Shown here: piece after piece, positions 3,281 through 46,964 of the stretch
How positions within the stretch are numbered: the stretch's first letter is position 1
Layout of the letters: each line of letters opens with the position of its first letter
Origin: Dehalococcoidia bacterium
GTDB taxonomy: Bacteria > Chloroflexota > Dehalococcoidia > Bin125
Length of the DNA: 64,000 bases
Assembly (NCBI GenBank): GCA_965215555.1
Contig: OZ244071.1
Span: 267,778-331,777, forward strand
Reading direction: 5' to 3'
Notes under the pieces: model-generated
Told to the model about the DNA's origin: nothing
The model's database searches: none
Seen by the model: the letters and a program-made list of their open reading frames with translations, nothing else
Translations under genes and position numbers: made by a program

Positions 3281-3780
3281 TGGCTGAGGAATCTCAAGAA
3301 CTGGTTGACGTTGAAGTCACGCTGTACCTGGCTGAGGCCCGGTGGCGACGAGACGATCAGGATCGACACCACGCTGCGCTGAATCAAAGACTCAGCACTC
3401 TGTTCGCTCTAAACTTCGCTGTACTCGCGATTCTCGGAGCATCCCTGAGCTTTGCCGATTTGAATCTGCCCGCTTATGTGGAAGGCTTCGCTCACGCCAC
3501 GATCTTCATGTTACTCGTGAACATCGCCCTCTTGATGTGGGCCTACCGGGTCGATCCGCTGAGTCGGCGACCGGGCTTACAGGCACTCTCCAAGATTGAA
3601 GATGACCATTCGTTGCCCATTGCTCAGCGGTGGTACGGCCGAGAAATCGAGTTGGCGCTAGAAACGAACGAGCGCAGGCTGGGTCATAAGCGTCGACTAA
3701 TCGGGTCGGCGATGTTGACTTCGTCACTAACGGTGCTGATGGTCGCCGCAGTGTCGGCGCTGACTTTGCACTTCGGCTGA
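3280..3780 (+). CDS. Hypothetical membrane protein with two adjacent TM helices (paralog of 20274..20813)
   Basis: ATG at 3280 overlaps the htpX stop (TGATG). N-terminal charged helix 'YLAEARWRRDDQDRHHAALNQRL' is followed by two hydrophobic helices and a C-terminal hydrophobic segment. Confidence 0.5.
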   Translation: MAEESQELVDVEVTLYLAEARWRRDDQDRHHAALNQRLSTLFALNFAVLAILGASLSFADLNLPAYVEGFAHATIFMLLVNIALLMWAYRVDPLSRRPGLQALSKIEDDHSLPIAQRWYGREIELALETNERRLGHKRRLIGSAMLTSSLTVLMVAAVSALTLHFG

Positions 3781-4067
3781 ATGATGCGTCATGAAACAGA
3801 CCCACTTCTGCTGCGCGGGCCGGTTCCTCACCTCTGACCGTTGGTCGAAACAGCGCGTCGGAAGTGTTTCGAAAGCCAGTTCAATAGCCTCCATTGCCTC
3901 ATGCGCTCGTCGACAGCTTCTTCCGAGTCAAAGAGTCCAGTTGGACCGAATCCCGTCTCTGAGATGACATACACCGGACCTGGAGGGGGGAGAGCATTCT
4001 CGGGGTCTTTGTGCTGGCCGGGAGATGGTCTAGCCTGGGTCATCACGATCCTCCTAGTGTCAGGGTA

Positions 4068-4975: not shown

Positions 4976-5749
4976 TTACCCATCTTGACCTCGCCTACCC
5001 TGCAACTCCTCCAACTCAGCTCGTAGCCTCTCGTTTTCCTGTTCGAGTTGATCTATTCGGGAAACGTCGGGCGATTCCTGAGCCTGTTGCCCTTCGACGA
5101 ACCACGCGGCCACATTCGCGGTCAGCACACCGAAGACTCCAATCCCGGCGACCATCAACAACACTCCGATCGCTCGACCTAACGCCGTGACCGGGGTGAC
5201 ATCCCCGTATCCCACTGTGGTAATGGTCGCGAGAGCCCACCATAAGGCAGTTCCCCAGTTGTCGATTGGCCCGTCCCCGCTCCGTTCGACAAGCACGACA
5301 AACATCGTTGCCAGGGCCAGGGCAAACAGCGATGCAAACAATGAAACAGCAATTGCACGGCGGCGAAGTATCTCTGAGAACACGCCACGAACAAAACCCA
5401 GCCTGAGCAGTAGGAGGATTCGCAGAGGCCTAAAGAACGGAACAACGACGATTGGGACTTCATACCAATGGCTGATCAGAAATCGCCGTCGATGCTCAGC
5501 CATCCAAACTCGAACAGCGAGATCCACGGCGAAGACAGACCAAATCACAGTGTCGCCGACGAAGAGCCATTGTTGCGCCGATGCTGACAACCTTGGATCG
5601 AAGTGACCGACGAGCAGCGGGATCATCGCGACAGCGAGAATCAGGAGCGCCGGTTCGGTGCGCCGCTCCCACTTCTCGCGCAGGTCGTCGTTCCTGGCTG
5701 TGTTCAATAGCCGACGAACCTGCTTACCCATCGCTCGGATTACCTGCAT
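4976..5749 (-). CDS. Voltage-gated potassium channel (6TM, canonical TTVGYGD filter)
   Basis: S4 helix 'RPLRILLLLRLGFVRG'. Selectivity filter 'ATITTVGYGDV'. C-terminal coiled coil. Confidence 0.75.
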   Translation of the reverse strand: MQVIRAMGKQVRRLLNTARNDDLREKWERRTEPALLILAVAMIPLLVGHFDPRLSASAQQWLFVGDTVIWSVFAVDLAVRVWMAEHRRRFLISHWYEVPIVVVPFFRPLRILLLLRLGFVRGVFSEILRRRAIAVSLFASLFALALATMFVVLVERSGDGPIDNWGTALWWALATITTVGYGDVTPVTALGRAIGVLLMVAGIGVFGVLTANVAAWFVEGQQAQESPDVSRIDQLEQENERLRAELEELQGRRGQDG

Positions 5750-7684
5750 TTAGCGAATGCTGGCTTTCATGTCTTCCCAGGCAGAGCGGGCATCTTCGAC
5801 GGAGCCTTCGTCTTCGATTGTGGAGATGTCTCCAGGATCCGTGTCGAGCGTGACGGCTTTGAGGACTCGCCGCATGATTTTGCCTGAGCGAGTCTTGGGC
5901 AGGGCGTCGACGAAGTTAAGCTCGCCGATGACGGCCACCGGGCCGAGTTCCCCACGGATGGTCTGGAGAATCTCGGTCTTGAGATCGTCGCCAGCCTCGT
6001 TACCGGCCTTGAGCACGACGAAGGCAGAGATGACTTCGCCTCGCAGTTCGTCCGGACGTCCGGTGACGCCAGCTTCTGCTGCGCCCGGATGCCTGAGAAT
6101 GGCTGACTCGACCTCGATGGTGCCGATTCGGTGAGCGGCGATTTTGATGATCTCGTCGGCTCGTCCTGAGAACCAGACGTAGCCGTCTTCGTCGACTGCG
6201 GTGGCGTCACCGGTGAAGTAGACCTGGCGACCGGGAACCTTTCCCCAGTAGTCGGTCTGATAGCGCTCGGGCTCGCCCCAGAGACGAGCAGTCAGGCCCG
6301 GGAAGGGTCTGGTGATGGCGAAGATGCCTTTCTCGTCGGCGGGGAGTTCTTCGCCGTCGGTATCGAGGACGGCGCCCTCGATGCCTGGCAACTGAATTCC
6401 GGCTGAGCCTGGTTTGATTGGCAGCATCTGGATGCCGTAGGGATTGCCGATGATCGGGCCACCCGTCTCGGTCTGCCACATGTGGTCGAGGACGGGAATC
6501 TCGTCGCCGAAGATTTCCTGCTGGAACCATTCCCAGGCGGGCGGATTGAGTACTTCGCCGGCGGAGAAGACGCGGGTCAGTGATGACATGTCGACAGCTT
6601 CGGCCGGCTCAGTCCCCGAGCGCATCAGCAGACGGATTGCCGTTGGTGAAGTGAACATGCCGGTGACGCCGTGGTCCTCGATGATCTTGTAGAAGGTGCC
6701 GACATCCGGGTGATCGAGCGCGCCTTCAAATGCGATCGTGGTTGCTCCGGCGAGCAGTGGTCCGTAGACGATGTAGGAGTGTCCCACGACCCAGCCGATG
6801 TCGGAGGTAGCCCACCAGACGTCCTCGGGCTGGAGGTCGAAGACCCAGTCAGCCATGCTGGCGATCCAGACCGGGTAGCCGCCGTGGGTGTGGACGCAGA
6901 GTTTGGGCCGCGCGGTCGTTCCTGATGTGGCGAGGATGTATGCCGGTTCGTTGGCTTCCATGGCGACCCACGACCCGTCGCCTCCACGGCCAGCTTCGAG
7001 GAAGTCCTCCCAGCTCATCTCCTTGTCGCCACCGATGTTGGGGCTGTCGGCCAGGCGACGCTCGACGACGACTGTCTCGATGATCTCGCCTGCGCCTTCG
7101 TTCTCGAGCGCGCCTCTGACGAAGTGGTTGAGCGGGACGTTGCGGCCGCGCCGGTATGTGGAGTCGGTGGCGAAAATGGCTTTGGCCTCGGCCAGCTTGA
7201 TCCGCTCGGCGATGGCGCCTGCCCCGAATCCGGCGAAGATGACCAGGTGGACTGCGCCGATGCGGGCACAGGCGAGCATCAGCGCGATCGCTTCGTAGTT
7301 GGTTGGCATGTAGATGGCGACGCGGTCGCCACGCTCGATTCCGATGGCGCGAAGTGAAGCGGCCATTCGCTCGACCTGCTTGAGGAGCTGCGCATATGTG
7401 AAGACACGTTGTTCGCCGTTTTCGTCGAGCGCGATCAGTGCGGCGCGACCACCATTTCCATTTGCGACCTGGGCGTCGAGGCAGGCGTAGGCCAGGTTGG
7501 TCTCGCCGCCGATGAACCAGCGGAAGGCAGGGATATCTTCCGGGGTCCACTCGAAGACTTCATCCCATTCTCGGAACCAGGGCAACCGAGCGGCTGCTTC
7601 CGACCAGAACGCATCGGGCTCGTCGAGCGCTCGACGTTGGATTTCGCGGACAATCGGGCCGACCAGATCGATGTCGGAAGGCAT
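5750..7684 (-). CDS. AMP-forming acetyl/propionyl-CoA synthetase (Acs/PrpE family)
   Basis: 644 aa. AMP-binding motif 'YILATSGTTARPK'. C-terminal 'LPKTRSGKIMRRVL' is typical of Acs/PrpE. Confidence 0.85.
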   Translation of the reverse strand: MPSDIDLVGPIVREIQRRALDEPDAFWSEAAARLPWFREWDEVFEWTPEDIPAFRWFIGGETNLAYACLDAQVANGNGGRAALIALDENGEQRVFTYAQLLKQVERMAASLRAIGIERGDRVAIYMPTNYEAIALMLACARIGAVHLVIFAGFGAGAIAERIKLAEAKAIFATDSTYRRGRNVPLNHFVRGALENEGAGEIIETVVVERRLADSPNIGGDKEMSWEDFLEAGRGGDGSWVAMEANEPAYILATSGTTARPKLCVHTHGGYPVWIASMADWVFDLQPEDVWWATSDIGWVVGHSYIVYGPLLAGATTIAFEGALDHPDVGTFYKIIEDHGVTGMFTSPTAIRLLMRSGTEPAEAVDMSSLTRVFSAGEVLNPPAWEWFQQEIFGDEIPVLDHMWQTETGGPIIGNPYGIQMLPIKPGSAGIQLPGIEGAVLDTDGEELPADEKGIFAITRPFPGLTARLWGEPERYQTDYWGKVPGRQVYFTGDATAVDEDGYVWFSGRADEIIKIAAHRIGTIEVESAILRHPGAAEAGVTGRPDELRGEVISAFVVLKAGNEAGDDLKTEILQTIRGELGPVAVIGELNFVDALPKTRSGKIMRRVLKAVTLDTDPGDISTIEDEGSVEDARSAWEDMKASIR

Positions 7685-7771: not shown

Positions 7772-9295
7772 ATGGACGAAGCGATTATCGACGAGGTCAT
7801 CCAGGCTCGTGCTCAGGCGATGGATGACGCCAGGCCTGAGGCTGTGGCGAAGGTCCACGCGAAGGGTAAGTTCACGGCCCGAGAGCGGATTGACAGGGTG
7901 CTCGATAAGAGCAGCTTTGTCGAGTATGGCGTACTGGCGATTCCGGCGAACAAGTCGATGACTGGTCCAGCGGATGGACTGGTGCAGGGCTTTGGCACGG
8001 TCGAGGGGCATCCAGTAGGCATCGCGTCCTACGACTACACGGTGCAAGGCGGTACTCAGACTGCACTGAACCACGGCAAGTTCGACCGACTGCTTGACCT
8101 GGTCCACGACCGCCGTTGGCCGCTGATCACGTTCGCCGACGGCGGCGGCGCCAGGGCGCATGACCTGGCTGGATCGCAACGGGGCCTGACGGGTCGCTGG
8201 GGAACATTCGACGGGATGGCGCAACTTTCCGGCTGGGTACCCACGGTGTCTGTGGTTTCGGGCAGGTCGTTCGCCGGCAATGCATCGATTGCCGGGCTGT
8301 CCGACTTCATCGTGGCCACGCGGGACTCGGCGATTGGCATGGGTGGGCCGCCGCTGGTCGAGGGCGCGATGGGTCTGAAGCTGACACCCGATGACATCGG
8401 TCCGGCGGAGATGCACGACCGGGTCGGTGGGATTGATCTGATGGTCGAGACTGAAGCCGAGGCGATTGATGCCGCAAATCGCTATCTGCGTTACTTCCTC
8501 TACGATCTGCCAGACGGAGAGGCCGATCCGTGGGCCGAGCGGATTCGCGGGATTGTGCCGTCGAATCGACGGCGTGCTTACGACATGCGACGGGTGATTC
8601 GCGCGATCATGGATCGCGACACGACATTTGAAGTGCGACCGACGTGGGCGCCACAGTTGATTACTGCGCTCGCACGACTTGGCGGCCGATCGGTGGGGAT
8701 CATCGCCAACCAGCCACTCTCGGTGATTGCCGGTGCGATTGACTCGGACGCGTCGGATAAGATTGCCCGCTTCATCCAGCTCTGTGATGCACACGAGATC
8801 GCGATGGTGTCGCTGGTCGACAATCCCGGCTACATGGTCGGGAGACCGGCGGAGGAGCAGGGGATCGCTCGACACCATGCGCGACCGATCATTGCGCATC
8901 AGAATCGGACGGTGCCGCTGTATACGATTCAGCTTCGCAAGGCCTACGGTCTCGGTCCGGCGGCGATGGGCAATTCGTTTGCGCCTCGCGACGTCCGCCT
9001 GGCCTGGCCGACAGCGGAATCAGGAGGTATGGGGCTTGAGGGCGCTTCGCTCCTGGTTAATCGCGACGAGATCCGTGAGGTTGAGGAACGTGATCCCGCG
9101 GAAGCGAAGCGTATCCGCGACGAGTGGGCCAACGATATGCGGGAACACAACTCGGCGATCAACGCCGGTCGTCGGTATGAGTTTGACGACGTGATTCCAC
9201 CCGAGGAAACGCGGGATCGGCTGATTGCCATGCTGCGGATGACGCCGAGAGCGCCGCTGTCGCCTGTGAAGAAGCATGCGGTGGATGCCTGGTAG
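7772..9295 (+). CDS. Acyl-CoA carboxylase carboxyltransferase beta subunit (propionyl-CoA carboxylase beta-like)
   Basis: ATG at 7772 (MDEAIIDEV...) inside the longer listed ORF. Carboxyltransferase N- and C-domain motifs are present. Divergent from the acs gene. Confidence 0.8.
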   Translation: MDEAIIDEVIQARAQAMDDARPEAVAKVHAKGKFTARERIDRVLDKSSFVEYGVLAIPANKSMTGPADGLVQGFGTVEGHPVGIASYDYTVQGGTQTALNHGKFDRLLDLVHDRRWPLITFADGGGARAHDLAGSQRGLTGRWGTFDGMAQLSGWVPTVSVVSGRSFAGNASIAGLSDFIVATRDSAIGMGGPPLVEGAMGLKLTPDDIGPAEMHDRVGGIDLMVETEAEAIDAANRYLRYFLYDLPDGEADPWAERIRGIVPSNRRRAYDMRRVIRAIMDRDTTFEVRPTWAPQLITALARLGGRSVGIIANQPLSVIAGAIDSDASDKIARFIQLCDAHEIAMVSLVDNPGYMVGRPAEEQGIARHHARPIIAHQNRTVPLYTIQLRKAYGLGPAAMGNSFAPRDVRLAWPTAESGGMGLEGASLLVNRDEIREVEERDPAEAKRIRDEWANDMREHNSAINAGRRYEFDDVIPPEETRDRLIAMLRMTPRAPLSPVKKHAVDAW

Positions 9296-9346
9296 GGGCT
9301 GCGCGGCCCCTCCGCTCTTCGGGGCACCTCCCCCAACGGGGGAGGT
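9296..9346. terminator. Bidirectional hairpin terminator region between convergent genes
   Basis: Two GC-rich hairpins, GGGGCTGCGCGGCCCC and CCTCCCCCAACGGGGGAGG, between the carboxyltransferase (+) and HIBADH (-) genes. Confidence 0.5.
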
Positions 9347-9347
9347 C

Positions 9348-10268
9348 TTAGTCGCTATCGATTGCGGTCGCAGGGATTGAGATGCCGGCGGCGGACTCGA
9401 GGACCAGTTGGGCTGAGAAGTGGTGTAGATCGTCGAGTCCTGCAGCGAGTGATGCAAGGTACGTCTGATGGGTGGCATTGGCTACCGGCATGGGGACTTT
9501 CTGGTCGCGTGCCAACTCCAGGGCGAGCCCGACGTCCTTCTCCGCGATGACCATCGTGGTCGTGGGATTCTCCCATTGCTTGTCGAGGAACTGTTCGGCT
9601 AATCGCATGTACGGTCGGGCTGTGCCTTGCCTGAGTTTGTCGACCAGGTCGAGCGGGTCGAGTCCGGCTTTGGCTCCGAGCACCAACGCCTCTTGGACAA
9701 TCATGTGTCCGCAGAGAACGATGGTGTTGTTGATCAGCTTGTAGAGGCAACCCATGCCGGCTTCGCCGAGATGGAACACGTGATCGCCGATGTGGTCGAG
9801 GAGCGGACGGATGCGTTCGAAGGTCTCAGCGTCTCCGCTGCCGAGGATGGTCAGCGTGCCCTGTCCGGCGCGCACGACTCCGCCGGTGACTGGGGCGTCG
9901 ATGTGAATCACTCCGGCGTTGGTCTCGAGCTGAAGAATCCGTTCGACGCCCTTGACCGAGTTGGTGCTGAGGTCGATGTGGATGTCTCCAGGCGAGGCTC
10001 CGGCCAGGATGCCGTCGGGACCGACGGTCGCAGCCTCAATCTGAGTTGGTCCAGGCAGCGAGGTGAAGACGATGGAACAGAGCGATGCGACCTCGGCGGC
10101 GCTGCCGGCGGATTCTGCGCCGAGTTCGAGCAGATTCTCCATGACTTCGGGTCGCAGGTCGTATACGACGAGCTGTTGCCCGCCTCTGATCAGTTGCCGA
10201 GCCATCGGGTTGCCGATGTTTCCGGTGCCGATGAAGCCAATTTGCTGGTCGCGTGTGGAGTCTGGCAT
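9348..10268 (-). CDS. NAD(P)-dependent 3-hydroxyisobutyrate dehydrogenase family oxidoreductase (HIBADH/MmsB-like), copy 1
   Basis: Start at ATG 10268 (MPDSTRDQQIGFIGTGNIGNPMA...). Rossmann GxGxxG motif. Confidence 0.8.
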   Translation of the reverse strand: MPDSTRDQQIGFIGTGNIGNPMARQLIRGGQQLVVYDLRPEVMENLLELGAESAGSAAEVASLCSIVFTSLPGPTQIEAATVGPDGILAGASPGDIHIDLSTNSVKGVERILQLETNAGVIHIDAPVTGGVVRAGQGTLTILGSGDAETFERIRPLLDHIGDHVFHLGEAGMGCLYKLINNTIVLCGHMIVQEALVLGAKAGLDPLDLVDKLRQGTARPYMRLAEQFLDKQWENPTTTMVIAEKDVGLALELARDQKVPMPVANATHQTYLASLAAGLDDLHHFSAQLVLESAAGISIPATAIDSD

Positions 10269-37181: not shown

Positions 37182-38348
37182 CTATGCGCGGGGCAGGCCG
37201 AAGCCTCGCTGGGCAATGATGTTTCTTTGCAGTTCGTTTCCTCCGGCTCCGAAGGTTGGCATGACTGCGGCGAGGTAGCCGTTTTCGGATGAGCCGCCGA
37301 TTGGCGCTCTCGAGTCGTTGCCGTTGAGCTGTCCGTAGAGTCCCATGGCGTGCAGTGAGAAGTTCTGCAGGCGCTGCATCATCTCGGTGGAGAAGATCTT
37401 GACCTGGCTGGCCTCGTAGTTGGGCGACTCTTCGCGCTTGAGCATGTCGAGGATGCGGAAGCTCAGGTGTTGCAGGACTTCGAGCTGCACCTTGAACTCG
37501 GCCATCGTCCCCTTGATGCCGGCATCGTCGATTGGGCGGCCCATCGGTGTGTCGGACTTGGCCCATTCGATCAGGTTGTCGTACACGGCCCGCACGGATG
37601 AGACGGTGAAGATCGAAATCCGTTCGCGGTCGAGCGCGTGCGCAGCGTAGTACCAACCGCGGTTCTCTTCTCCGACGAGGACGTTCGTCGGGACGCGCAC
37701 GTCTTCGAAGTACACCTCGTTGGTTCGGTAGCCGGCCATCGTCCAGAGCGGCTTGACCGTGATGCCGGGCGACTTCATGTCAACCAACATCATCGAGACG
37801 CCACGGTGCTTGGGCGCGTCCGGGTCAGTCCGAGTGGCGAGCCAGACATATTCGCTGCGATGGGCTCCAGAGGTGAAGCGCTTGATTCCGTTGAGGATGT
37901 AGTCATCGCCATCTTTGATGGCGCGAAGCTGCAGAGAGGCGAGGTCGGAACCGGCGTCGGGCTCTGTGTAGCCGAGGGCGAATTCGACTTCTCCGCGCGC
38001 GATCGGCGGGAGGAAGCGTTCCTGCTGCTCGTCGGTGCCGAATCGCATCAGCGTCGGGCCGACCTGCTGCGTGGCGACCGTCGCCTGCGGCGCTCCGGCG
38101 TAGTTCATCGCCTCCCAGAAGAGGTACTGCTCTTCTAGAGAGCGTTCTTGTCCGCCATACTCGGCCGGCCAGGACATCGTCAGCCATCCACGCTCAGCCA
38201 GCAGCCTTCGGAAGCCGCGTTCTTCGTCCATCGTATCCGTGGTCGGATCGCCGATGGTCGCCCTGAGTTCGGCGGTCCATGACTGGTCGAGAAACTCGTT
38301 GACTTCGGTTTCGAAGGCGAGTGCCTTGTCGCTGAATCGATATTCCAT
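37182..38348 (-). CDS. Acyl-CoA dehydrogenase family protein
   Basis: 388 aa with the ACAD fold, for example 'GYTEPDAGSDLASL'. Confidence 0.8.
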   Translation of the reverse strand: MEYRFSDKALAFETEVNEFLDQSWTAELRATIGDPTTDTMDEERGFRRLLAERGWLTMSWPAEYGGQERSLEEQYLFWEAMNYAGAPQATVATQQVGPTLMRFGTDEQQERFLPPIARGEVEFALGYTEPDAGSDLASLQLRAIKDGDDYILNGIKRFTSGAHRSEYVWLATRTDPDAPKHRGVSMMLVDMKSPGITVKPLWTMAGYRTNEVYFEDVRVPTNVLVGEENRGWYYAAHALDRERISIFTVSSVRAVYDNLIEWAKSDTPMGRPIDDAGIKGTMAEFKVQLEVLQHLSFRILDMLKREESPNYEASQVKIFSTEMMQRLQNFSLHAMGLYGQLNGNDSRAPIGGSSENGYLAAVMPTFGAGGNELQRNIIAQRGFGLPRA

Positions 38349-38406: not shown

Positions 38407-39804
38407 TTATCGCAGGCTCGAGAGGGCTTTGTTCGGCGCGGTACGAACGATGAACGTCGCCGCGCCGTTAAGCACTTTGCGCGCAGTGGCGGGCGCGGTG
38501 GTCACAAAGGACTCCGGCGGGTGTTGCGGGACTCGGGCGCGGAGGATGACCGGGCGGAGCAGGATGATCGCAGCGAGCAACACGATCACGGCGTAGGACA
38601 TTGGCGGGAACAGGGTTTCCATTGTCAGGGTCTGGGCGACGGCGCCGAGCGGCAGGCCGACAGCCTGGGCGATGCCCATGCCGAGGAAGACCAGTCCCAT
38701 AATCCGGCCACGCATCTCGTTGGGGGTCTCGTAGGCGAGGGTCGCATTGGCCGAGACCATGGCGATTGACATTCCGACACCGAGCAGCAGGTTGCCCATC
38801 ATGGCGTTGACGACGGTCGGCGGGTTTGTGAAGACCACGAATCCGAGTGCCATGACCATGACGCCGAGCGCAGTCAGGAGGCCCTTGCGCTCGATCCAGG
38901 AGAAGCGGACGAGGAAGAGTGAGGCGATCATGGCTCCGCCGCCCCAGAAGACGGCGATGTAGCTGAACTCCGACCAGGTGGCGCCGACGACGGTGGTGAC
39001 CCACTGCGGCCCGAGCGTGCCGGTGGGCGGCATGATCAGCGACATCATCATGACGACGATGAACACGGTCCAGAGAATGACGGGTTTGGAGCGCGCGTAG
39101 CGCAGGCCGGCACCGATGTCGCGGAGGGCCTGTCCAGGTCCTTGACCGCGTCTGGCTGCCATGTGCGCAGCGGAGAATACGGTGCGGTAGGACATCATCG
39201 CCAGGACGAGGACCTCGCCGAAATGTCCGAATGAGGAGATGGCGAATACCGCTCCGTGGCCCAGGTGATCGATCATCAGGCCGGAGGCGAAGATCGCTAT
39301 CGGCATGGCGAATTGCATCGCGGCCGAGTTCAGAGCGATGCCCGCCGGGGTCAGTCGTGGCCCCAGGATTTCTGGGGTGATTGCGTTTCTGGTGGGTCCG
39401 TCGATGGCATGGGCCGATGAGGCGATGATGGTCAGCGCGAAGAAGAGGATGATGTCCGTAGACGTGCCTGAACCAGTCCACATGACGACCGCAATGAGAA
39501 TGTTGGAGACAAATGCAATCGCCTGAGTGACCATCAGCAGTCGGCGGCGGTCGAAGCGATCGGCGAGCGCCCCGCCGAAGAGACCGAAGCCGATCATCCC
39601 GATGCCGCGAATTGTGCCGATTGCGCCGACCATGATGATCTCGACGCTGTCGTCGGCGACAAACTGTATCCAGGCGATTGAGGCGACGAACTGCAACGGC
39701 ATCATCGATTGGCCGACGATGAAACCGGTCAAGAGCAGTCGGAACTCTCGTATTCTGAGCGGTTCCGTCATGCCGGGTCGCGTAGGTGGCGACTGTGCGC
39801 TCAT
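38407..39804 (-). CDS. MFS transporter
   Basis: 12-14 TM helices and MFS signature 'GALADRFDRRRLL'. Confidence 0.75.
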   Translation of the reverse strand: MSAQSPPTRPGMTEPLRIREFRLLLTGFIVGQSMMPLQFVASIAWIQFVADDSVEIIMVGAIGTIRGIGMIGFGLFGGALADRFDRRRLLMVTQAIAFVSNILIAVVMWTGSGTSTDIILFFALTIIASSAHAIDGPTRNAITPEILGPRLTPAGIALNSAAMQFAMPIAIFASGLMIDHLGHGAVFAISSFGHFGEVLVLAMMSYRTVFSAAHMAARRGQGPGQALRDIGAGLRYARSKPVILWTVFIVVMMMSLIMPPTGTLGPQWVTTVVGATWSEFSYIAVFWGGGAMIASLFLVRFSWIERKGLLTALGVMVMALGFVVFTNPPTVVNAMMGNLLLGVGMSIAMVSANATLAYETPNEMRGRIMGLVFLGMGIAQAVGLPLGAVAQTLTMETLFPPMSYAVIVLLAAIILLRPVILRARVPQHPPESFVTTAPATARKVLNGAATFIVRTAPNKALSSLR

Positions 39805-40436
39805 GTCGATAGTTTCGCCGCTTCGAGGACCGTGTGTCGCGGCCCTTGATGAACTTTCGCGACCTGATCGGCTCCGAAGATCATGGCCAGACGTCGCTGT
39901 AGATAACGGCGCAATCCATTGACTGCCACCACGACGAGCGAGCCACCGTCGGCCAATGCATCGTGTGCCTCGAGCAATAGCTGATCGAGGGCGTCATTGC
40001 CGGCCTGTGCGGGCAGGTTGGACACCACGAGTTCGTAGGTTCCGATGGATTGACTGGGCAGGTCGCGAATGCCGTCGCTGAGCGTCGCTGTGGTGTTACT
40101 CAAGTGATTTCGTGCCGCGTTGTCGTTCGCGGCTTCAACGGCGCGGATGTCTGTGTCGACCATATCGATCTTCGAATCAGGCCAGCGGGCGGCCAACGTC
40201 AGTCCGATTGCACCGTAACCGCATCCAAGGTCGAGGATTCGCGGCATCGGCGAAAGTTGATTGAGTTCTCGGAGCAGTAAAGCGGTGCCTTCATCGAGCG
40301 CTCGGGCGGAAAACAGTCCGTGCCGGGTCACGAGTTCGAGCTGCTGGTCGCCGATCTCGATGGTCACGCGAGGCTGCGTTGCGAGATGTTCCCGCAAGTG
40401 GTCGAGCCGGGCGGGTTCGACACGGGGCAAGGTCAC
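39801..40436 (-). CDS. Class I SAM-dependent methyltransferase (RsmC/RlmG-like small MTase domain)
   Basis: 'ILDLGCGYGAIGL' motif I and the 'NLP' (NPPY-like) motif. Confidence 0.7.
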   Translation of the reverse strand: MTLPRVEPARLDHLREHLATQPRVTIEIGDQQLELVTRHGLFSARALDEGTALLLRELNQLSPMPRILDLGCGYGAIGLTLAARWPDSKIDMVDTDIRAVEAANDNAARNHLSNTTATLSDGIRDLPSQSIGTYELVVSNLPAQAGNDALDQLLLEAHDALADGGSLVVVAVNGLRRYLQRRLAMIFGADQVAKVHQGPRHTVLEAAKLST

Positions 40437-41524
40437 AACGGATCGATTCGTGCGGACACTGGAGTGAAGTCGTCCATGTGCTCAGGGTCCATCCTGCGGA
40501 CGATCCCCGGGTAGATGCCGGTGCGCTTTCCGGCGGTCGATCCGGCGACGGCGATTTGGATGTGCGAGGGATGGGCAACCTTCGACATTGGACGATTGAG
40601 GTCTGCTTCGGTGATTCCCTCTCGCTTGAGAGTGGGCTGGGTGATGCCTCCACCGACTCGGTCGGTGGCGAGACGATCGCGGATCGGTCGTGCCGTGAGT
40701 TCCATGATCGCTTCTCGGACATTGGCTTTGGACCAACCGTCCTGACGAAAGACACCAGCATGCTCGGGACTGATCACCAGCATGGACGGGCCGATCTGTC
40801 CGTTGGGGCTGAAGATGCCGTCAAATCCCATCGCCAGGGAGCCGACGAGCGCTCTTGCTGTGCGGCTGTACTCGTCGACGCAGACTCGAGGTCCGCCGAT
40901 CACGGGCAGGAGCGTGACGACGCTGTCGTCGGGCTGGTAGCCGTACTCGACGTGCAGCGGTTGCCAGGGCGAGGCATCCTCGTGCTCTGCAAAGGTCAGC
41001 GTGAACTTGTGCGCGCCGCCCTGGACGGTCTGGTCGATTTCGCCCTCTCGAGCGCCGCCGATGTTGCGCAAGACCAGCCGCAAGGCTCGGCCGATGGTCA
41101 TGTTGGCGCGATTGCCCTGTCCCAGTGCGTTGAGCCCCCAGTTCATCCTGATCTGCTCGCGAACCGGGCCATTGACAATGACCATGGGCGAAATGCCGTC
41201 TGTACTGGCGACCGTCCCGTGTAAGGGAAACTGGCCACCGGCGGCAGCAGCAACGGCGGCGATGATGGCCGGAAAGAATGTTGGCGATGCTCCGGCCATG
41301 ACTGCGTTGATCGCGATTTTCTCGACCGTGGCCGGCGCGTAGTTTGGCGGGATCTTGCCAATCACTTGTTCAGGAGAGCGATTTGTGTTGGCCAACATGC
41401 GCTCGACCCGTTCGCGAGTTGGAGGGACAACTGGTAGGCCGTCGGTCACACGCTGGTCGAAGAGGAACTCGTAGATGTCGTCGTGGTCGGCGACGTCAAT
41501 GGTGCGCGAGCCAAGGTTGATCAT
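40433..41524 (-). CDS. Uncharacterised conserved protein, family X copy 1 (selenoprotein-locus paralog)
   Basis: Start ATG 41524 (MINLGSRTIDVADHDDIYEFLFDQRVTDGLPVVPPTRERV...). Shared motifs 'INAVMAG', 'LHGT', 'GQGNRAN..GRALRL..RNIGG', 'QGG.HK'. Confidence 0.55.
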   Translation of the reverse strand: MINLGSRTIDVADHDDIYEFLFDQRVTDGLPVVPPTRERVERMLANTNRSPEQVIGKIPPNYAPATVEKIAINAVMAGASPTFFPAIIAAVAAAAGGQFPLHGTVASTDGISPMVIVNGPVREQIRMNWGLNALGQGNRANMTIGRALRLVLRNIGGAREGEIDQTVQGGAHKFTLTFAEHEDASPWQPLHVEYGYQPDDSVVTLLPVIGGPRVCVDEYSRTARALVGSLAMGFDGIFSPNGQIGPSMLVISPEHAGVFRQDGWSKANVREAIMELTARPIRDRLATDRVGGGITQPTLKREGITEADLNRPMSKVAHPSHIQIAVAGSTAGKRTGIYPGIVRRMDPEHMDDFTPVSARIDPL

Positions 41525-42630
41525 GAACGAACAAGGGCGGACGGGGGCACGAACGTGGGCGCAGGCGCTAGGGGATTGCCGTCGCCGAAGATGCCCTGGT
41601 AGATGCTGGTCCACTTGCCGGCGTGGCTGCCGGCAACGGTGATCTGAATGAACGAGGGATCGGCCACTTTCGACATGAGCATATCGAGTTGATCTTCGGT
41701 CAGACCGTGCTGTTCGGGCAGGTATTCATTGATGCCGCCACCCATGCTTGGTGTGGCCAGACGCTCGCGGAGCGGGAGCGCGGTGAACTCCATGATCGCT
41801 TCGCGGATGTTGTCTTTTGACCAGCCGTCGGCGCGATAGACATCAGCGTGTTCGGGACTGATCACGAACATCGTGGGTGAGACCTGACCTCGCGGCTTGA
41901 CCACCTGCTGGAAGGCCATGGCGATCGATCCGGTCAGCGCTCTCCCGTTGCGACTGGTCTGATCAATACAGACTCGGGGACCGCCGGTGATTGGGATCAG
42001 CGAGACGACACTGTCGTCGGGTTCGTAGCCATGCTCCACGTGGAATGGTTCCCAGGGCGAGTAGTCTTCGTCCTCCGCATAACTGAGCGTCCACTTGTGG
42101 CCGCCACCCTGGATGGCCTGTTCGATCTCGCCGGGCACGGCTCCGCCGATGTTGCGCAGCATCAGGCGGAGTGCGCGTCCGAGAGTTGAGTTGGCTCGGT
42201 TGCCCTGGCCGAGGGCGTTGAGACCCCAGTTCATGCCGATCTGCTCGCGGACTGGTCCGTTGACCAACATCATCGGGGCGAGTCCGGCCGTCGTGGCGAT
42301 TGACCCGTGTAGGGGAAACTGCCCCCCGGCGGCGGCTTCGACGGAAGCCAGGACTGTCGGGAAGAACTGGGGACTGCAGCCAGCCATGACGGCGTTGATG
42401 GCTGCCTTCTCGACGCTCATCGGCGCCGTGTTGGGCGGCAGCGTCGCAACGATCTTCTGAGGATCACTCCAGTGCTCTGGAGCGCAGGCGAGCATACGGT
42501 CGACACGCTCACGAGTGGGCGGGATGACGGGCAGGCCGTCGGTGATTCCCTGGGCGAACATGAACTCGTAGACATCGTCATGCTCGGCGATTTCGATGAT
42601 CCGAGAGTAGAAGTCGGTTTCGCCGGGCAC
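41521..42630 (-). CDS. Uncharacterised conserved protein, family X copy 2
   Basis: 'DDVYEFMFAQGITDGLPVIPPTRERVDRML...' Its stop overlaps the copy-1 start (ATGA). Confidence 0.55.
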   Translation of the reverse strand: MPGETDFYSRIIEIAEHDDVYEFMFAQGITDGLPVIPPTRERVDRMLACAPEHWSDPQKIVATLPPNTAPMSVEKAAINAVMAGCSPQFFPTVLASVEAAAGGQFPLHGSIATTAGLAPMMLVNGPVREQIGMNWGLNALGQGNRANSTLGRALRLMLRNIGGAVPGEIEQAIQGGGHKWTLSYAEDEDYSPWEPFHVEHGYEPDDSVVSLIPITGGPRVCIDQTSRNGRALTGSIAMAFQQVVKPRGQVSPTMFVISPEHADVYRADGWSKDNIREAIMEFTALPLRERLATPSMGGGINEYLPEQHGLTEDQLDMLMSKVADPSFIQITVAGSHAGKWTSIYQGIFGDGNPLAPAPTFVPPSALVRS

Positions 42631-42752
42631 GGCATTGCCTTGTCGATTGGGTGCGGCCCCTCGGTCCAGGGGAACGCCCTCACCCTTACCCTCTCCCAGC
42701 GGGAGAGGGGATTGAATAGATTCGGGGGCTCTCAGCAGAGGCGGTCTGAGAG

Positions 42753-43283
42753 CTATTCGACGGGCGCCATCAAGGTGTCGAGGATTTCGTCGACGAAGCG
42801 TTCGGCGTGTTCGTGCATCTCGGCGTCGGTGCGGTCCTGCATCGGATGCGGGATGAAGACGCGACGCACTTCTTCAAGTCCGAGACGCTCAGCCTGATGG
42901 CTGGCGGCTTTGATGAACTCGGAAGTCGCAATGAAGACGCTGGGCTTGCCCTGCAGTTCGAAGAAAACGGTGTCGTGCACACTGCACGTCGTGCAGGATC
43001 CTCAATCAGCGAGCGCTTCGATGACGAAGTCGCACTCCTCCAGGATGGCATCTTTGATCGGTTGCGGGGCCGGCTTGGCGACGGTCGGCTTCATGAAGCG
43101 TCGGGTCTCGACGCCGGGCGCACGCTCGTGGAGGAGCTGCTCGAGTCGGTCGAGGAAGACGTTGCCACGCGGCTTGGAGATGTCGAGCAGGGCGATCGTC
43201 CCATGCAGCGCTTCCGGGCGCGGCGTGAGAGAGCGCTTGATCGGCACTCGTTCGTCGGTTGGATCAAGGATCTGGGTAACCAT
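42753..43283 (-). CDS. Putative selenoprotein with in-frame UGA (Sec) followed by G-S-C, a UGSC-type motif
   Basis: Two listed ORFs (43002..43283 and 42753..42980) are in the same frame, separated by a single TGA at 43002..43004. The product reads ...DFVIEALAD-U-GSCTTCSVHDTVFFELQGKP.... The run CUGCACGACGUGCAG just 3' of the UGA can fold into a stem-loop. Confidence 0.6.
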
Positions 43284-43364
43284 TGGACCTCTCCATCAAC
43301 GCGCTCGGTGCAGGGTCTGGCGCGTTGTGTGTTTGTTGACAGTCTACTCGTTGCAACTGATGAC

Positions 43365-45041
43365 TTAGGGTTTGCGGACGCTCGGTTCGAACGCGCCGAG
43401 TCTGGGTCCGCCAGCGGGACTCTTGCTGTTGCCGGTGCGTCGCGGCCTGATTTCGGTCGCGCCGTTGGGACCGATATTGGCGCTGGTTGCGGTGGAATAC
43501 ACGCCGGTTGCCCAGCCGCCAAGGATGGTGGAGAACTTCGCCGCGGACGATCCGGCGACGACGAGGATGATGTTCGACTTGTCCTGGAATTTGGCGACGG
43601 GGTGGTCGAGCGCTGCTTCGCCCCCGAATCGCTCGACGACGCTGGGCGGCAGGCCGCAACCGGCATCGTCAGAGCGGAGACGGTACTTGAGCGGGATGGA
43701 TGTCTCTTCCATGATGCACTCGCGCACGTCGTCTTTGGACCAGCCTGAGCGTCCGAAGATGCCTGCGTGGTCGGGGGAGAGGACGACGAGGGTGTCGACC
43801 ATCGGCGACTTTGGGTCTTGCATGCAGCTCATCGAAGCGGCGAGCGTGCCGGCCATGCCTCGCCCGTCTCGGGAGCGTTCGTCGGCGATGGTGGCTGGGC
43901 CACCGGACATCGCCGTCAGCGTGGCGACATCGTCGGTGGGATCGAAACCGAGCTCAACGGCGAGCGATTCCCAGGGGCTGGCGTCCTCGTTCTCGGCGAA
44001 GTTCATCGTCAGACGGTGCGGGCCGCCCTGTGTGGCTCGATCGGTACCGCCAGGGATGCTGCCACCGACATTTCGCACGCACAGTCGCAGAGCCCTGCCG
44101 ATGGCTGCGTTGGCTCGGTTGCCGGATCCCAACGCTCCGTGGAGGTAGTTCATCCCGATTCGGTCTCGAATCGGTCCGTTGAAGATGCCGACGGGCGTGG
44201 CGCCCATCGTGGTCGCGAGCACGCCGTGGACGTTGAAGCTGTCGGTGCAGGCGATCTCGATCAGCGCGATGATCGAGGGCATGTACACGGGCTTGGCTCC
44301 GGCCATGACTGCGTTGATCGCAATCTTCTCGACTGTGATCGGCGCGAGATTGGGCGGGACGACCGCGACCTCCTCCTGAGGGTCGCGCGGAGTGCCTTGC
44401 AGCATTTTCCAAACGCGCTCGCGCGTCGGCGGCACGACGGGGAAGCCGTCGGTGTAGCCCTGCTCGTACATGAAGTCGTGAATGTCGTCGCTGGACGCCA
44501 AGTCAACGAGGCGCGAGAGCAGGTCGCCGCTCTTGATCGCTTGCAGCCGTTCGTAAACGCCCGGCTCGTAGTTGCGTGCGCCGCATCCGGGTCGCTGGAC
44601 GGGGAGCGCATCCCAATCGATGTCGGTGTCGCCATCGGGTCGGCCGGCGAGCGCCATCGACTCTTTGGCGATTTCGTGCCACTCGTGCCTGTCGAAGCCG
44701 AACGTCTGCAGGGTGCAGTTCTGTTCTTCGTCGTACAGGAACAGCGTCGGCACGGTGTCGATATCCGTCTCGTAGGACAGATCGAGCGCGTCGTCGTCCA
44801 GCAACGGCATTGTCAGGTCGTGACGGTCCTTGAGGACGGGGATGTCCTCGGTCTTCTGTACGGCGACCCAGACATCGAGTCCGTCGTCAGTGGCTCGGTG
44901 GACTGCCTCGAGCAGCGGCAGGGTGAGGTTGCAGGTATCGCAGTCTTCTTTGACCAGCGCCAGCAGGACGGGGCCCTGCGGCGGGAACTGCATTTCCTGA
45001 CCGTTGGCGTTTTGGAGGGAGAATTTAGTAGGTGGATGCAT
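43365..45041 (-). CDS. Thioredoxin-like (CxxC) domain fused to family X copy 3
   Basis: N-terminal ~150 aa has a thioredoxin-like fold with 'CDTC'. The remainder aligns to copies 1 and 2 ('YTDGFPVVPPTRERV', 'INAVMAG', 'GSGNRANAAIGRALRL'). Confidence 0.6.
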   Translation of the reverse strand: MHPPTKFSLQNANGQEMQFPPQGPVLLALVKEDCDTCNLTLPLLEAVHRATDDGLDVWVAVQKTEDIPVLKDRHDLTMPLLDDDALDLSYETDIDTVPTLFLYDEEQNCTLQTFGFDRHEWHEIAKESMALAGRPDGDTDIDWDALPVQRPGCGARNYEPGVYERLQAIKSGDLLSRLVDLASSDDIHDFMYEQGYTDGFPVVPPTRERVWKMLQGTPRDPQEEVAVVPPNLAPITVEKIAINAVMAGAKPVYMPSIIALIEIACTDSFNVHGVLATTMGATPVGIFNGPIRDRIGMNYLHGALGSGNRANAAIGRALRLCVRNVGGSIPGGTDRATQGGPHRLTMNFAENEDASPWESLAVELGFDPTDDVATLTAMSGGPATIADERSRDGRGMAGTLAASMSCMQDPKSPMVDTLVVLSPDHAGIFGRSGWSKDDVRECIMEETSIPLKYRLRSDDAGCGLPPSVVERFGGEAALDHPVAKFQDKSNIILVVAGSSAAKFSTILGGWATGVYSTATSANIGPNGATEIRPRRTGNSKSPAGGPRLGAFEPSVRKP

Positions 45042-45143
45042 GGCAGTAGTTTAGCGTTGACGTTCGTCAGATTGACCCTGTCGCGCGTTAGCGCGACACT
45101 ATGCCAAGACACGATAGCCGTAACGGTTGAGGGGTGTGATCCA

Positions 45144-45473
45144 ATGTCCCAGCTTCGACGCTTGCTGCTGGCGCTTGTGGTGATTGGTGGACTGAGTGCG
45201 TTGACACTCGGGGTCGCAGCAGCAGGCGAGTACGCCATCGAAGAGCCGGCGCAAGTAGTTGAGGCGGGCGGCGACGAAGAGGACAGCGTTCACGTTTCGG
45301 ATGAGTCGCTGGCGACTTCGCTGTTCATCCCATTCTGCTTTGTCGGTGCGACGTTGGCGGTGTTCGTCTGGGCAATCCGCGCCCGGGCGAGACGCGAGGA
45401 CGACGAAATCCCGATGCCATGGTGGCGGACACGTCAGTGGTACACACGCGGCACCGAAGAGGACGAGGCGTAA
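45144..45473 (+). CDS. Hypothetical small secreted/membrane protein
   Basis: ATG 45144 with upstream GAGGGG. Signal-like N-terminus 'MSQLRRLLLALVVIGGLSALTLGVAAAG', acidic middle, TM helix, and basic tail. Confidence 0.4.
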   Translation: MSQLRRLLLALVVIGGLSALTLGVAAAGEYAIEEPAQVVEAGGDEEDSVHVSDESLATSLFIPFCFVGATLAVFVWAIRARARREDDEIPMPWWRTRQWYTRGTEEDEA

Positions 45474-45637
45474 CTGGCCTGCTTCTGCCGTTGCGAGGCA
45501 GATGCCGATAGCGGGCAGAGTTCCCCTTAGACACTGGGAATTCGATAGTCACCTCCCATCCTCTGTCACTCCGTGGCATCTCCCCCGCAGGGGGGAGGTG
45601 AGGCACGAACGTGCGGGCTCTAGGGCGTGTTCGCGCT

Positions 45638-45842
45638 AGCCATCTGCTTAACCAGAATTCCGTCGTTGCCGCGCTTGTCGCAGCCTGCCCCTCACTTGAT
45701 GGGGGGGCAATCTCGTCGAGTGTTGCACGGACAGTTGCGGCGAATACAGCGAGATACCCGCGGCAAGCGCGGGTATGACAATCTCTTGTTGGCCCGGGTA
45801 GGACGGGAACTCCTGGACGAACCGCTACGTGTGAACAGGTCC
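45638..45842 (-). repeat. Structured intergenic repeat, copy D (inverted, two internal sub-repeats)
   Basis: Near-identical to the reverse complement of copy A (AGCCATCTGCTTAACCAGAATTCCGTCGTTGCCGCGCTTGTCGCAGCCTGCCCC...). Lies between convergent genes. Confidence 0.8.
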
Positions 45843-45857
45843 TAGCTGCGACCTGCC

Positions 45858-46964
45858 CTAGAACAGCAACTGGCCTAAGCGACGGCGATAATCCGCGACG
45901 ACTGGCTGGTTTTCGCCGAGCATTGCGAAGATTCCCAGGAGGGTCTTGCGCGCGGCTTCGTCGCCGGCGGATTTGTCGATCTTCACCGACTCGAGCAACT
46001 CGTCGAGCGCTTCCATCCACTGACCCTCGATCGCCAGCAGGCAACCGTGCCTGAAGTGGGCGAGCGGATCGCCGGGATTGCTGGAGACGGTTTGCCTGAT
46101 CTCGTCCGGCTCGAACCCTTCGAGGGCCGCCATCAGCTCCATCGATGTGAGGACACTCTTACTCAATGGGTGATTGGGCCAGCGACGAGCGAGCTCGGCT
46201 GCTCGGTCAGTCTCTCCGACCCTCGAGAGGATGGCAGCGAGTCCGACTCCTGCCGGCTCGTGGTTGGGATCTTCTTCCAACGCCGACTCGAAGTGCAATC
46301 GGGCAATCGGAATCTGATTTTCCTGCATCATCCGATAGCCCTCGGCCGCTTTCATGTCTGCTTCGGAGGGAATCAGAGAATCGAAGAAGGTTCGGACCTG
46401 ATCCTCGGGCAATGCGCCGACGAACTTGTTGACCAATTGACCTCCGACGAACGCGAATACTGCCGGAATGCCCTCGACCTGTAGCGCCTGGGCGACCTGC
46501 GGGTTTTCGTCGGTGTTGACCTTGACCAGTTGCACCTGGCCGTCGCGCTCGTATGCGAGCTTCTCCAGGATCGGACCCAGGACTCGGCAGGGCCCACACC
46601 AGGGGGCCCAGCAATCGACGATCACGGGCAGCTCATGGGAGCGCTGCAGCACATCCTGCTGGAATGTCGCATCGGTGGAATCGATGACGGCCGCGACGTG
46701 GCCATGCAACCCCTGTGGCTCGGTGCCGTCAGGCGCTTGCCCTGGCTCAGATCTCTGTGAGGGTGGTGGCGTCTCACGAATCGGGACGGGCGGTGGCGGC
46801 GGTGCGGCTGGCTGCTGCTGAACGCTACGTATTGGTTGTCCCGAGGCCGAGTAGATGACCGGCCCGGAAGGCTGAGGCGGCTGCTGTTGAGGAGGAGGCT
46901 GTGGCGCGCCGCGTTGCACTCGGTCACGGGGGAACGGGATCGGGTCGGGCGGTCGCTGCGTCAT
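45858..46964 (-). CDS. Thioredoxin domain + TPR-like co-chaperone (YbbN/CnoX-like) with Pro/Gln-rich N-terminus
   Basis: 'WAPWCGPCR' thioredoxin motif followed by TPR-like helical repeats. Confidence 0.75.
   Translation of the reverse strand: MTQRPPDPIPFPRDRVQRGAPQPPPQQQPPQPSGPVIYSASGQPIRSVQQQPAAPPPPPVPIRETPPPSQRSEPGQAPDGTEPQGLHGHVAAVIDSTDATFQQDVLQRSHELPVIVDCWAPWCGPCRVLGPILEKLAYERDGQVQLVKVNTDENPQVAQALQVEGIPAVFAFVGGQLVNKFVGALPEDQVRTFFDSLIPSEADMKAAEGYRMMQENQIPIARLHFESALEEDPNHEPAGVGLAAILSRVGETDRAAELARRWPNHPLSKSVLTSMELMAALEGFEPDEIRQTVSSNPGDPLAHFRHGCLLAIEGQWMEALDELLESVKIDKSAGDEAARKTLLGIFAMLGENQPVVADYRRRLGQLLF

Follow-up and report, generated by a model that had tools for sequence, protein, structure and literature searches.

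What is encoded by a row of minus-strand genes in which a short gene, interrupted by an in-frame TGA, lies among three copies of a protein that fits no named family? The row stands in a 64,000-nucleotide window of a Dehalococcoidia bacterium genome (assembly GCA_965215555.1, contig OZ244071.1, positions 267,778 to 331,777); all coordinates below are those of the window. An initial annotation, made from the sequence without database searches, took the interrupted gene for a new selenoprotein. The three copies, here called X1, X2 and X3, were seen as substrate-handling subunits of a redox system, one of them (X3) fused to a thioredoxin-like (Trx-like) domain. The selenocysteine (Sec) gene is genuine and belongs to the UGSC family, which is already known; what stands out is the context of UGSC and its partner system. 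The ‘UGSC-containing protein’ was listed in 2007 among selenoproteins without known function, one member being that of Hyphomonas neptunium (PMC1976440), and the family has figured in selenoproteome surveys since 2007-2008 (PMC1976440, PMC2398784). In the updated Global Ocean Sampling (GOS) survey, such proteins make up about 8% of all selenoprotein genes (PMC9402790).

Is the TGA a Sec codon? The UGSC gene occupies 42753-43283 on the minus strand as two open reading frames (ORFs) of 93 and 75 amino acids in one frame. Read-through of the TGA at 43002-43004 yields a protein of 176 residues, ...FVIEALAD-U-GSC-TTC-SVHD..., in which this codon specifies Sec94. With U replaced by C, the product matches two family hidden Markov models (HMMs), NF041046 (153.5 bits against a cut-off of 125, profile positions 4-146 of 147) and PF24696 (151 bits against 25, positions 1-171 of 172). 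Each match is a single hit running across the TGA. For comparison we used 80 loci seeded on X, 79 from a genome scan plus a 97% identical relative, L001 (L and P numbers are our own handles). The 73 homologous UGSC genes recovered from these loci, which span six or more phyla, all carry TGA at the Sec column, flanked by (E/Q/V)(A/G)(L/V)AD and GSC-x-(T/S)-CS. The Cys-type homologues P0269 and P0272 read ALAD-C-GSC, their Cys aligned to the TGA, and U94, C97, C100 and H103 are invariant in stand-alone UGSC. A chance stop can be dismissed, since the family HMMs span the TGA, Cys homologues align with it, it is conserved in every homologue, and a downstream hairpin is preserved at synonymous sites. 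The gene is therefore a true selenoprotein gene, as proposed; its supposed novelty falls away, both curated cut-offs being exceeded. The motif ALAD-U-GSC, the length of about 175 residues and a selenocysteine insertion sequence (SECIS) directly 3′ of the UGA all agree with the ‘UGSC-containing protein’ of Zhang and Gladyshev. What differs is the setting: three X paralogues, a methyltransferase and a transporter of the major facilitator superfamily (MFS) here, against the usual single upstream gene for a Trx-X fusion.

The SECIS is not apparent from one sequence. Folding of the 71 nucleotides after the UGA gave z = -0.14, which is not significant, so the element is recognisable only through comparative data. 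Its apical hairpin, CGUGCA-GUG-UGCACG, lies at 42974-42988 on the minus strand, +17 to +31 from the U of UGA, with G23 and U24 in the loop. In the family form, CGUGCA-GUN-UGCAYG, each of the 72 unique sequences makes all six pairs. Codon choice is fixed within the hairpin, whereas identical amino acids a few codons further upstream use various codons: Ser+7 is AGU throughout the 72, while Ser+2 uses six codons, and Cys+6 is UGC in 71, while the codons for Cys+3 split 34 to 38. The lone UGU at Cys+6 is offset by CUA on the opposite arm, a compensatory change. The hairpin shares with the Escherichia coli fdhF SECIS its apical position, the G23/U24 loop and the 3′ arm U26-G-C-A-C30 in identical register. 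It differs in a loop of three rather than four nucleotides, in having no evident bulged U17 and in an unconserved lower stem. The fdhF sequence used as reference is found, at 100% identity, in the fdhF genes of 5,419 E. coli genomes.

Other genomes provide independent evidence that UGSC is decoded with Sec. At 19 alphaproteobacterial loci, including one in the isolate Sulfitobacter sp. M05, the gene order is selA, selB, tRNA-Sec (anticodon tca), Trx-X, UGSC; at a twentieth, on a short contig, tRNA-Sec lies directly upstream of Trx-X and UGSC. An Ndh-SelD fusion of about 720 residues adjoins the module in six of the 20. These Sec islands (at about 3.8-12 kb in each of L025, L033, L036, L037, L039, L042, L048-L051, L053, L054, L059, L060, L063, L064, L066, L068, L070 and L071) suggest that the Sec machinery and the X/UGSC module travel together in these Alphaproteobacteria. 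The window itself holds no tRNA detectable by ARAGORN, no Rfam match at gathering thresholds and no selA, selB or selD; about 60 other loci likewise have no sel gene near the module.

What, then, are the X proteins? X2 (41521-42630, 369 amino acids) and X1 (40433-41524, 363 amino acids from its ATG) stand alone on the minus strand, and X3 (43365-45041, minus strand, 558 amino acids) is the fusion. Their description as paralogues outside any named family was borne out. X2 is 62% identical to X1 and 46% to X3, all the motifs originally quoted are shared, and neither Pfam nor NCBIfam has a model for X. Scans with X1, X2 and the X part of X3 returned only noise far under the cut-offs, and 40 diverse members searched at E ≤ 10 gave no family for the X domain. 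Among the noise were an NCBIfam glycerate-kinase match of X1 (19 bits against cut-offs above 600) and a RepB_primase_C match of X2, both dismissed. The family is very large: more than 7,285 proteins (90%-identity clusters) at E < 1e-5; 6,438 representatives of 50%-identity clusters at E < 1e-3 and 1,960 at E < 1e-30; and at least 592 loci in species-representative genomes. It has no solved structural relative either. An AlphaFold2 model of X2 from a 40-sequence alignment reached a predicted local distance difference test (pLDDT) of 90.8 and a predicted template modelling score of 0.90. Foldseek compared this model with the whole PDB and found no match at E ≤ 0.001, the best being an insignificant one to cyanuric acid hydrolase/barbiturase (E = 0.013, TM score about 0.2). 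A search of all PDB sequences with the family profile (hmmsearch) gave zero matches at E ≤ 10.

The conservation of X looks like that of an enzyme. Across 355 aligned domains, R152 and E186 are invariant, and more than 93% keep D31, G32, P34, T39, T114, N134, R145, N147, N160, E188 and W193; no Cys or Ser is found in all. The family-wide polar residues are all kept in X1, X2 and X3, which differ among these positions only at residue 85. Since all three retain the putative active-site residues, all are probably functional.

The link between X and UGSC is strong, not absolute, and is among the strongest that comparative genomics can provide. The initial annotation had asked whether X co-occurs across genomes with the U/C-GSC protein and a Trx-like domain, and it does so across phyla. 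A UGSC gene, always with TGA, is present in 73 of the 80 X-seeded loci, usually 50-200 bp downstream of a single Trx-X fusion gene. These loci fall in Chloroflexota, Gamma- and Alphaproteobacteria, Acidobacteriota, Acidimicrobiia and Myxococcota; the taxa include Dehalococcoidia, other Chloroflexota, Pseudomonadales, Halieaceae, Sulfitobacter, Henriciella, Phenylobacterium, Hyphomonas, Vicinamibacterales, Acidimicrobiia and Myxococcota. Two stand-alone X representatives, picked blindly, both adjoin a TGA-containing UGSC gene. When the search was seeded on UGSC instead, X adjoined it at the five places of P0318, at the Cys-type P0269 and at P0382, whose X carries a frameshift in the assembly.

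Fusions tie the two proteins together directly, and in both orders. The best 150 X cluster representatives comprise 99 with X alone, 17 Trx+X, 15 UGSC+X, 10 X+UGSC, 8 X+X and 1 X+X+UGSC. Nine of the 11 X+UGSC gene calls (X+X+UGSC included) end at ‘...A(L/V)(A/G)D’ and are therefore cut at the Sec codon; several UGSC+X calls start just past it. Among 11 full-length fusions with an N-terminal UGSC, six have Cys (CGSCT[S/A]W/G); in the remaining five the motif search detected none. UGSC genes and fusions are routinely truncated at the UGA in public gene calls, so that many database entries of the family are fragments and fusion selenoproteins go unrecognised. Examples are P0147, P0156, P0175, P0205, P0211, P0240, P0247, P0253, P0262, P0188, P0172, P0189, P0192, P0193 and the window gene at 42753-43283. 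The X-UGSC fusions are likely the ‘UGSC/Unknown_1 fusion’ of the 2008 GOS paper, X then being its Unknown_1; no X motif was found in the examined part of that paper's sequence supplement.

Some single loci deserve mention. At L170 (JGI 3300045922, UGSC at 3501-4034), no X occurs within 3.5 kb on either side, and UGSC is flanked by a methyltransferase and a restriction-modification pair. X genes are split by apparent frameshifts in the long-read assemblies of L077 (5454-6472) and L169 (1118-3501); these are probably assembly errors, not pseudogenes.

The Trx-like domain is the third component. In X3 it covers residues 1-150 (44592-45041), with CDTC at residues 34-37 (44931-44942); the linker RPGCGAR, with Cys153 at 44583-44585, and the X domain follow at 43365-44591, as delimited by paralogue alignment, and a tail of about 30 residues extends beyond the X domain. 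A CxTC motif is found in 76 of 78 fused Trx-X homologues and the Cys-containing PGCG linker in 66. The N-terminus of X3 is itself too divergent for any curated cut-off: its ResA match is weak (16.8 bits against 170), and no Pfam match appears at E ≤ 0.01. Orthologous fusions match PF00578 or PF08534, with E down to 1e-16. The CxxC, common to X3 and its orthologues, and these Pfam matches recall the TlpA/ResA/AhpC-TSA proteins. The domain of X3 differs from them in being cytoplasmic, with neither signal peptide nor membrane anchor, and in being joined to X through the conserved Cys linker.

What kind of protein is UGSC itself? A model built on P0269, the Cys-type homologue 50% identical to the window protein, has a pLDDT of 92.8 and shows a five-fold beta-alpha, Rossmann-/flavodoxin-like sandwich, in which U/C95-x-x-C98 sits at a strand end, where a helix begins. 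The N-terminal stretch of about 20 residues in UGSC carries an invariant D-P-T...R motif and has low pLDDT; being conserved yet poorly ordered in the model, this tail is a candidate docking peptide. The best structural matches, McrC and Mmp7, share only 9-12% identity with UGSC and score barely ahead of generic Rossmann-like folds. They are archaeal proteins that bind iron-sulfur clusters (PMC12176620), and there is no evidence of a common function.

A more specific likeness is to selenoprotein B (GrdB) of the glycine, sarcosine and betaine reductases and to PrdB of D-proline reductase. GrdB/PrdB-like sequences from the GOS supplement share with UGSC a local layout of hydrophobic strand, U-x-x-C, helix and ‘E..G(I/K)P(S/T)V’, and an ‘R..F...P’ block downstream. 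As with UGSC, the partners of these proteins are a larger subunit that is not a selenoprotein and a reductant of the thioredoxin type. Profile-profile comparison of UGSC with 14 GOS sequences gave E = 4.8e-5 at 68% probability, Sec aligned to Sec. A run of hhalign on five sequences (E = 8.8e-4, 23%) and a comparison with 93 sequences (E = 1.8e-5, 78%) both shifted the motif by three residues. The controls gave E = 0.6 for a reversed alignment and E = 0.42 both for UGSC against X and for X against PrdB. We found no solved structure of GrdB or PrdB for comparison. On this sequence evidence, UGSC is probably a minimal relative of the Sec domain of selenoprotein B/PrdB. It differs in having only 176 residues, without the remainder of GrdB/PrdB, and in its partner, which is X and not the pyruvoyl proproteins GrdE/PrdA. 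Compared with glycine, sarcosine and betaine reductases, the module has no GrdA, GrdC or GrdD, and it is found mostly in aerobic bacteria of sea and soil.

The resemblance to glycine and proline reductase operons suggested in the initial annotation thus survives in part. It has some sequence support, with selenoprotein B/PrdB as the analogue in place of the selenoprotein A first named, and it does not extend to the substrate subunit, as X shows no similarity to the pyruvoyl subunits GrdE and PrdA. Selenoprotein A (GrdA) is also a small Sec protein encoded beside thioredoxin-type genes; its sequence is unrelated, its motif is CxxU (ECFVUT in the GOS example) whereas UGSC has UxxC, and no GrdA model is among the Pfam and NCBIfam hits of UGSC. 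A kinship of UGSC with selenoprotein A was therefore rejected. The idea that X is a pyruvoyl protein of the GrdE/PrdA type was dropped as well: PF09338 matched none of 40 X sequences at E ≤ 10, and X has no universal Cys or Ser able to form a pyruvoyl group. Since protein B of betaine reductase needs no carbonyl cofactor, such chemistry may be possible without a pyruvoyl group. In the neighbourhoods of 80 Cys-type PrdB-like genes from soil and aquatic metagenomes (L089-L168), no PrdA-like neighbour recurs and X occurs once only: at L143 (2729-4342), a 5.9-kb contig carries X together with a PrdB-like gene and a UGSC gene.

How might these parts work together? We tentatively propose, at a confidence a little short of an even chance, that X and UGSC together are a two-component reductase dependent on Sec, with X as the substrate-binding part and the Trx-like domain as the means of recycling UGSC. 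A small anionic substrate would be bound and activated in a pocket of X formed by the conserved R152, E186, E188, R145, N147, N134, N160, T39 and T114. UGSC would then dock on X, plausibly through its unstructured, invariant N-terminal ‘DPTDE...R’ tail, and present the selenolate, as nucleophile or reductant, at the helix N-terminus within U94-x-x-C97-x-x-C100. The resulting Se-S bond could be resolved by C97/C100 and relayed by way of Cys85 (in X) and the linker Cys in those proteins that have them. Its acceptor would be the CxTC domain attached to X, as in X3, which would itself be re-reduced by cellular thioredoxin or another reductant. In the Dehalococcoidia clade of the window, the triplication of X and the translational coupling of X genes to a methyltransferase and an MFS transporter suggest a version that is heteromeric or acts on several substrates, linked to the uptake or export of a small molecule and to its modification. 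What the comparisons show is the family membership of UGSC, its Sec decoding signals, its linkage and fusions with X, the redox motifs and the lack of any known family or fold for X; a catalytic or substrate-binding role of X, the sequence of steps in the relay and the kind of reaction are inferred. A broader claim is that X and UGSC, with or without the Trx-like domain, constitute an unrecognised and widespread class of selenium-dependent reductases in aerobic marine and soil bacteria, with X as a catalytic subunit whose fold lacks a solved relative, the Sec subunit a stripped-down cousin of selenoprotein B/PrdB, and the reaction a reductive cleavage of a small anionic metabolite. This we hold to be possible, with the balance leaning against it.

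Several observations speak against the proposed reductase. Seven of the 80 X loci have no UGSC within 8 kb, even by HMM search, and one UGSC lineage (P0316) has no X within 3.5 kb. The link to GrdB/PrdB is weak to moderate (23-78% probability), with a motif register that differs between runs, and the Pfam model GRDB (PF07355) matched none of 19 UGSC sequences at E ≤ 10. For X, no resemblance to GrdE/PrdA or to an entry of Pfam, NCBIfam or the PDB could be detected, so it is the conservation pattern that must speak for a substrate-binding subunit. A 2026 review still counts UGSC among families whose functions ‘remain largely uncharacterized’ (PMC13188914). Cys85 of X (in ‘AVMAGC’), a possible step of the relay, is present in 76% of domains and replaced by Ala in 23%. 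Within the window only X2 has it (codon at 42376-42378), X1 and X3 having Ala; in sister genomes the gene after UGSC usually keeps the Cys. At L002, from a Dehalococcoidia metagenome-assembled genome (CAXXUV010000008.1), all three X copies (5748-7325, 7974-9095 and 9167-10183) have Ala85, and in every other locus at least one copy retains the Cys. Given the Ala in 23% of domains and in all copies of L002, Cys85 appears useful but dispensable. A role for it as pyruvoyl precursor or essential nucleophile was rejected on the same grounds and from its position between two helices.

Other explanations have to be weighed against a two-component reductase. UGSC could be a general thiol/selenol antioxidant or disulfide reductase, acting as a peroxidase or as a reductase of protein disulfides or sulfoxides; the AhpC/TlpA-like domain would recycle it, and X would be a scaffold, regulator or client. 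The fused domain of homologues does match AhpC-TSA/Redoxin, most prokaryotic selenoproteins are thiol oxidoreductase-like, the hosts are aerobic, and in this clade a gene for a CnoX-like protein with thioredoxin and tetratricopeptide repeat (TPR) domains lies upstream. We nevertheless consider this unlikely. The predicted fold of UGSC is neither thioredoxin nor peroxiredoxin; X is larger than UGSC and rich in invariant Arg, Glu, Asn and Thr, as is typical where a pocket is catalytic; and obligate pairing and repeated fusion with a 350-residue protein would be odd for a stand-alone antioxidant. That X and UGSC reduce or traffic selenium species (or those of sulfur or a metalloid) and so feed SelD seems improbable to us. 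Such a role finds its argument in the Sec islands, with tRNA-Sec upstream in 20 loci, selA and selB too in 19 and Ndh-SelD adjacent in six. The same arrangement is expected if UGSC is merely the main selenoprotein served by the machinery, the window and the roughly 60 other loci have no sel gene nearby, and the Cys-type UGSC-X pairs and fusions argue against selenium-supply chemistry.

By analogy with McrC and Mmp7, UGSC might instead be an electron carrier that binds a metal or cluster through U-x-x-C-x-x-C-x-x-H, X being the redox enzyme it serves. The four ligands are invariant in stand-alone UGSC, but the third Cys gives way to Trp in the Cys-type fused forms (CGSCT[S/A]W), so that only U/C-x-x-C is universal, and the fused CxTC domain indicates dithiol/selenol exchange; such a carrier is in our judgement highly improbable. 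The reading of the TGA as a true stop, with the halves a pseudogene or two small ORFs, has a chance close to nil. It has in its favour that gene callers return just these two ORFs, and it is refuted by the comparative data: TGA in 73 of 73 homologues, both halves conserved as protein, a frozen SECIS, Cys homologues and Sec machinery adjoining the module in 20 loci.

These results change the standing of UGSC. For nearly twenty years it has been an orphan selenoprotein without assigned function or partner; it now belongs to a defined system of two or three components open to direct testing, on the basis that UGSC is nearly always beside or fused to X, that X lacks a solved structural relative and that the Sec domain resembles a minimal GrdB/PrdB. 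The X family, with thousands of sequence clusters, merits a family model of its own. If the module is indeed a widespread selenium-dependent reductase, this would account for the rank of UGSC among the most abundant selenoproteins of the ocean and for the alphaproteobacterial Sec islands whose only nearby selenoprotein gene is this module.

Why are there three X genes in the window? In its ancestral and widespread form the module contains a single X, most often joined to the Trx-like domain. Three X genes occur at L001, L002 and L013 and two at L003-L006 and L077, all in the Dehalococcoidia clade of the window, and outside it L027, also from Chloroflexi, has a second copy; three X genes together are seen in this clade alone. 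The three copies may form a heteromer or, in line with the several substrate specificities suggested initially, may each serve a different substrate. The extra copies are accompanied by a methyltransferase coupled through GTGA, an MFS transporter and a downstream acyl-CoA dehydrogenase gene. A methyltransferase downstream of the module is seen only in L001-L006, L013 and L077. The nearest relative, with an X2 97% identical, lies on a 3.6-Mb metagenome-assembled contig of the same gene order.

Across the loci, certain neighbours of the module recur. Acyl-CoA dehydrogenase genes are found near it at 18 loci, short-chain dehydrogenases/reductases at 15 and enoyl-CoA hydratase at six; CoA-transferase III is nearby at 10 loci and in TARA contigs, where it directly follows UGSC (L083-L085). 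MFS and MatE transporters and an amidohydrolase also recur. These neighbours may hint at a carboxylic acid or coenzyme A (CoA) ester as substrate, or may equally reflect the gene content of the genomes. The CoA-transferase III loci, from Chloroflexota and Gammaproteobacteria, are among L007, L009, L017-L019, L028, L031, L032, L057, L083-L085 and others.

The row of five co-directional minus-strand genes described initially (X3, UGSC, X2, X1 and a methyltransferase) is present in full, and so is the 4-nucleotide ATGA overlap of X2 and X1. The methyltransferase (39801-40436, GTG start) is a class I S-adenosylmethionine-dependent enzyme with an MTS domain (PF05175, 111.4 bits against a cut-off of 23, E = 4.8e-32) and overlaps X1 by four nucleotides, GTGA. 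A further 4-nucleotide overlap, ATGA, joins it to an MFS transporter gene (38407-39804, minus strand; MFS_3/MFS_1 match in the 97%-identical relative L001), which for this reason is probably on the same transcript. As the three overlaps extend to the transporter, the unit is longer than five genes. Beyond it by 58 nucleotides lies a co-directional acyl-CoA dehydrogenase gene (37182-38348, minus strand), whose membership of the operon is uncertain. For X1, the ORF listing extends to an upstream GTG at 41614; we adopted the ATG at 41524, since homologues have 363 residues and this start gives the ATGA overlap with X2.

A scan of the window from 37 to 46 kb for promoters and terminators gave nothing exceeding the shuffled expectation. 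The 122-nucleotide spacer between UGSC and X2 contains an inverted repeat (42690-42708, minus strand) with a perfect 8-bp stem, CCTCTCCC-GCT-GGGAGAGG, and no U-tract after it. It could be an element of mRNA processing or stability, or an attenuator that separates the first two genes from the rest of the operon.

Upstream of X3, a gap of about 800 bp (45042-45857) is free of minus-strand genes. A divergent plus-strand ORF at about 45144-45473 encodes 109 residues with two hydrophobic segments (MSQLRRLLLALVVIGG...) and may specify a small membrane protein; a similar ORF start is found in L004. On the far side of the gap, about 800 bp from the operon and co-directional with it, lies the gene for the Trx-TPR protein of the CnoX/YbbN type (45858-46964, minus strand), with a WCGPC motif. 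Its position is conserved across the same Dehalococcoidia clade, and the protein is a possible reductant of the module.

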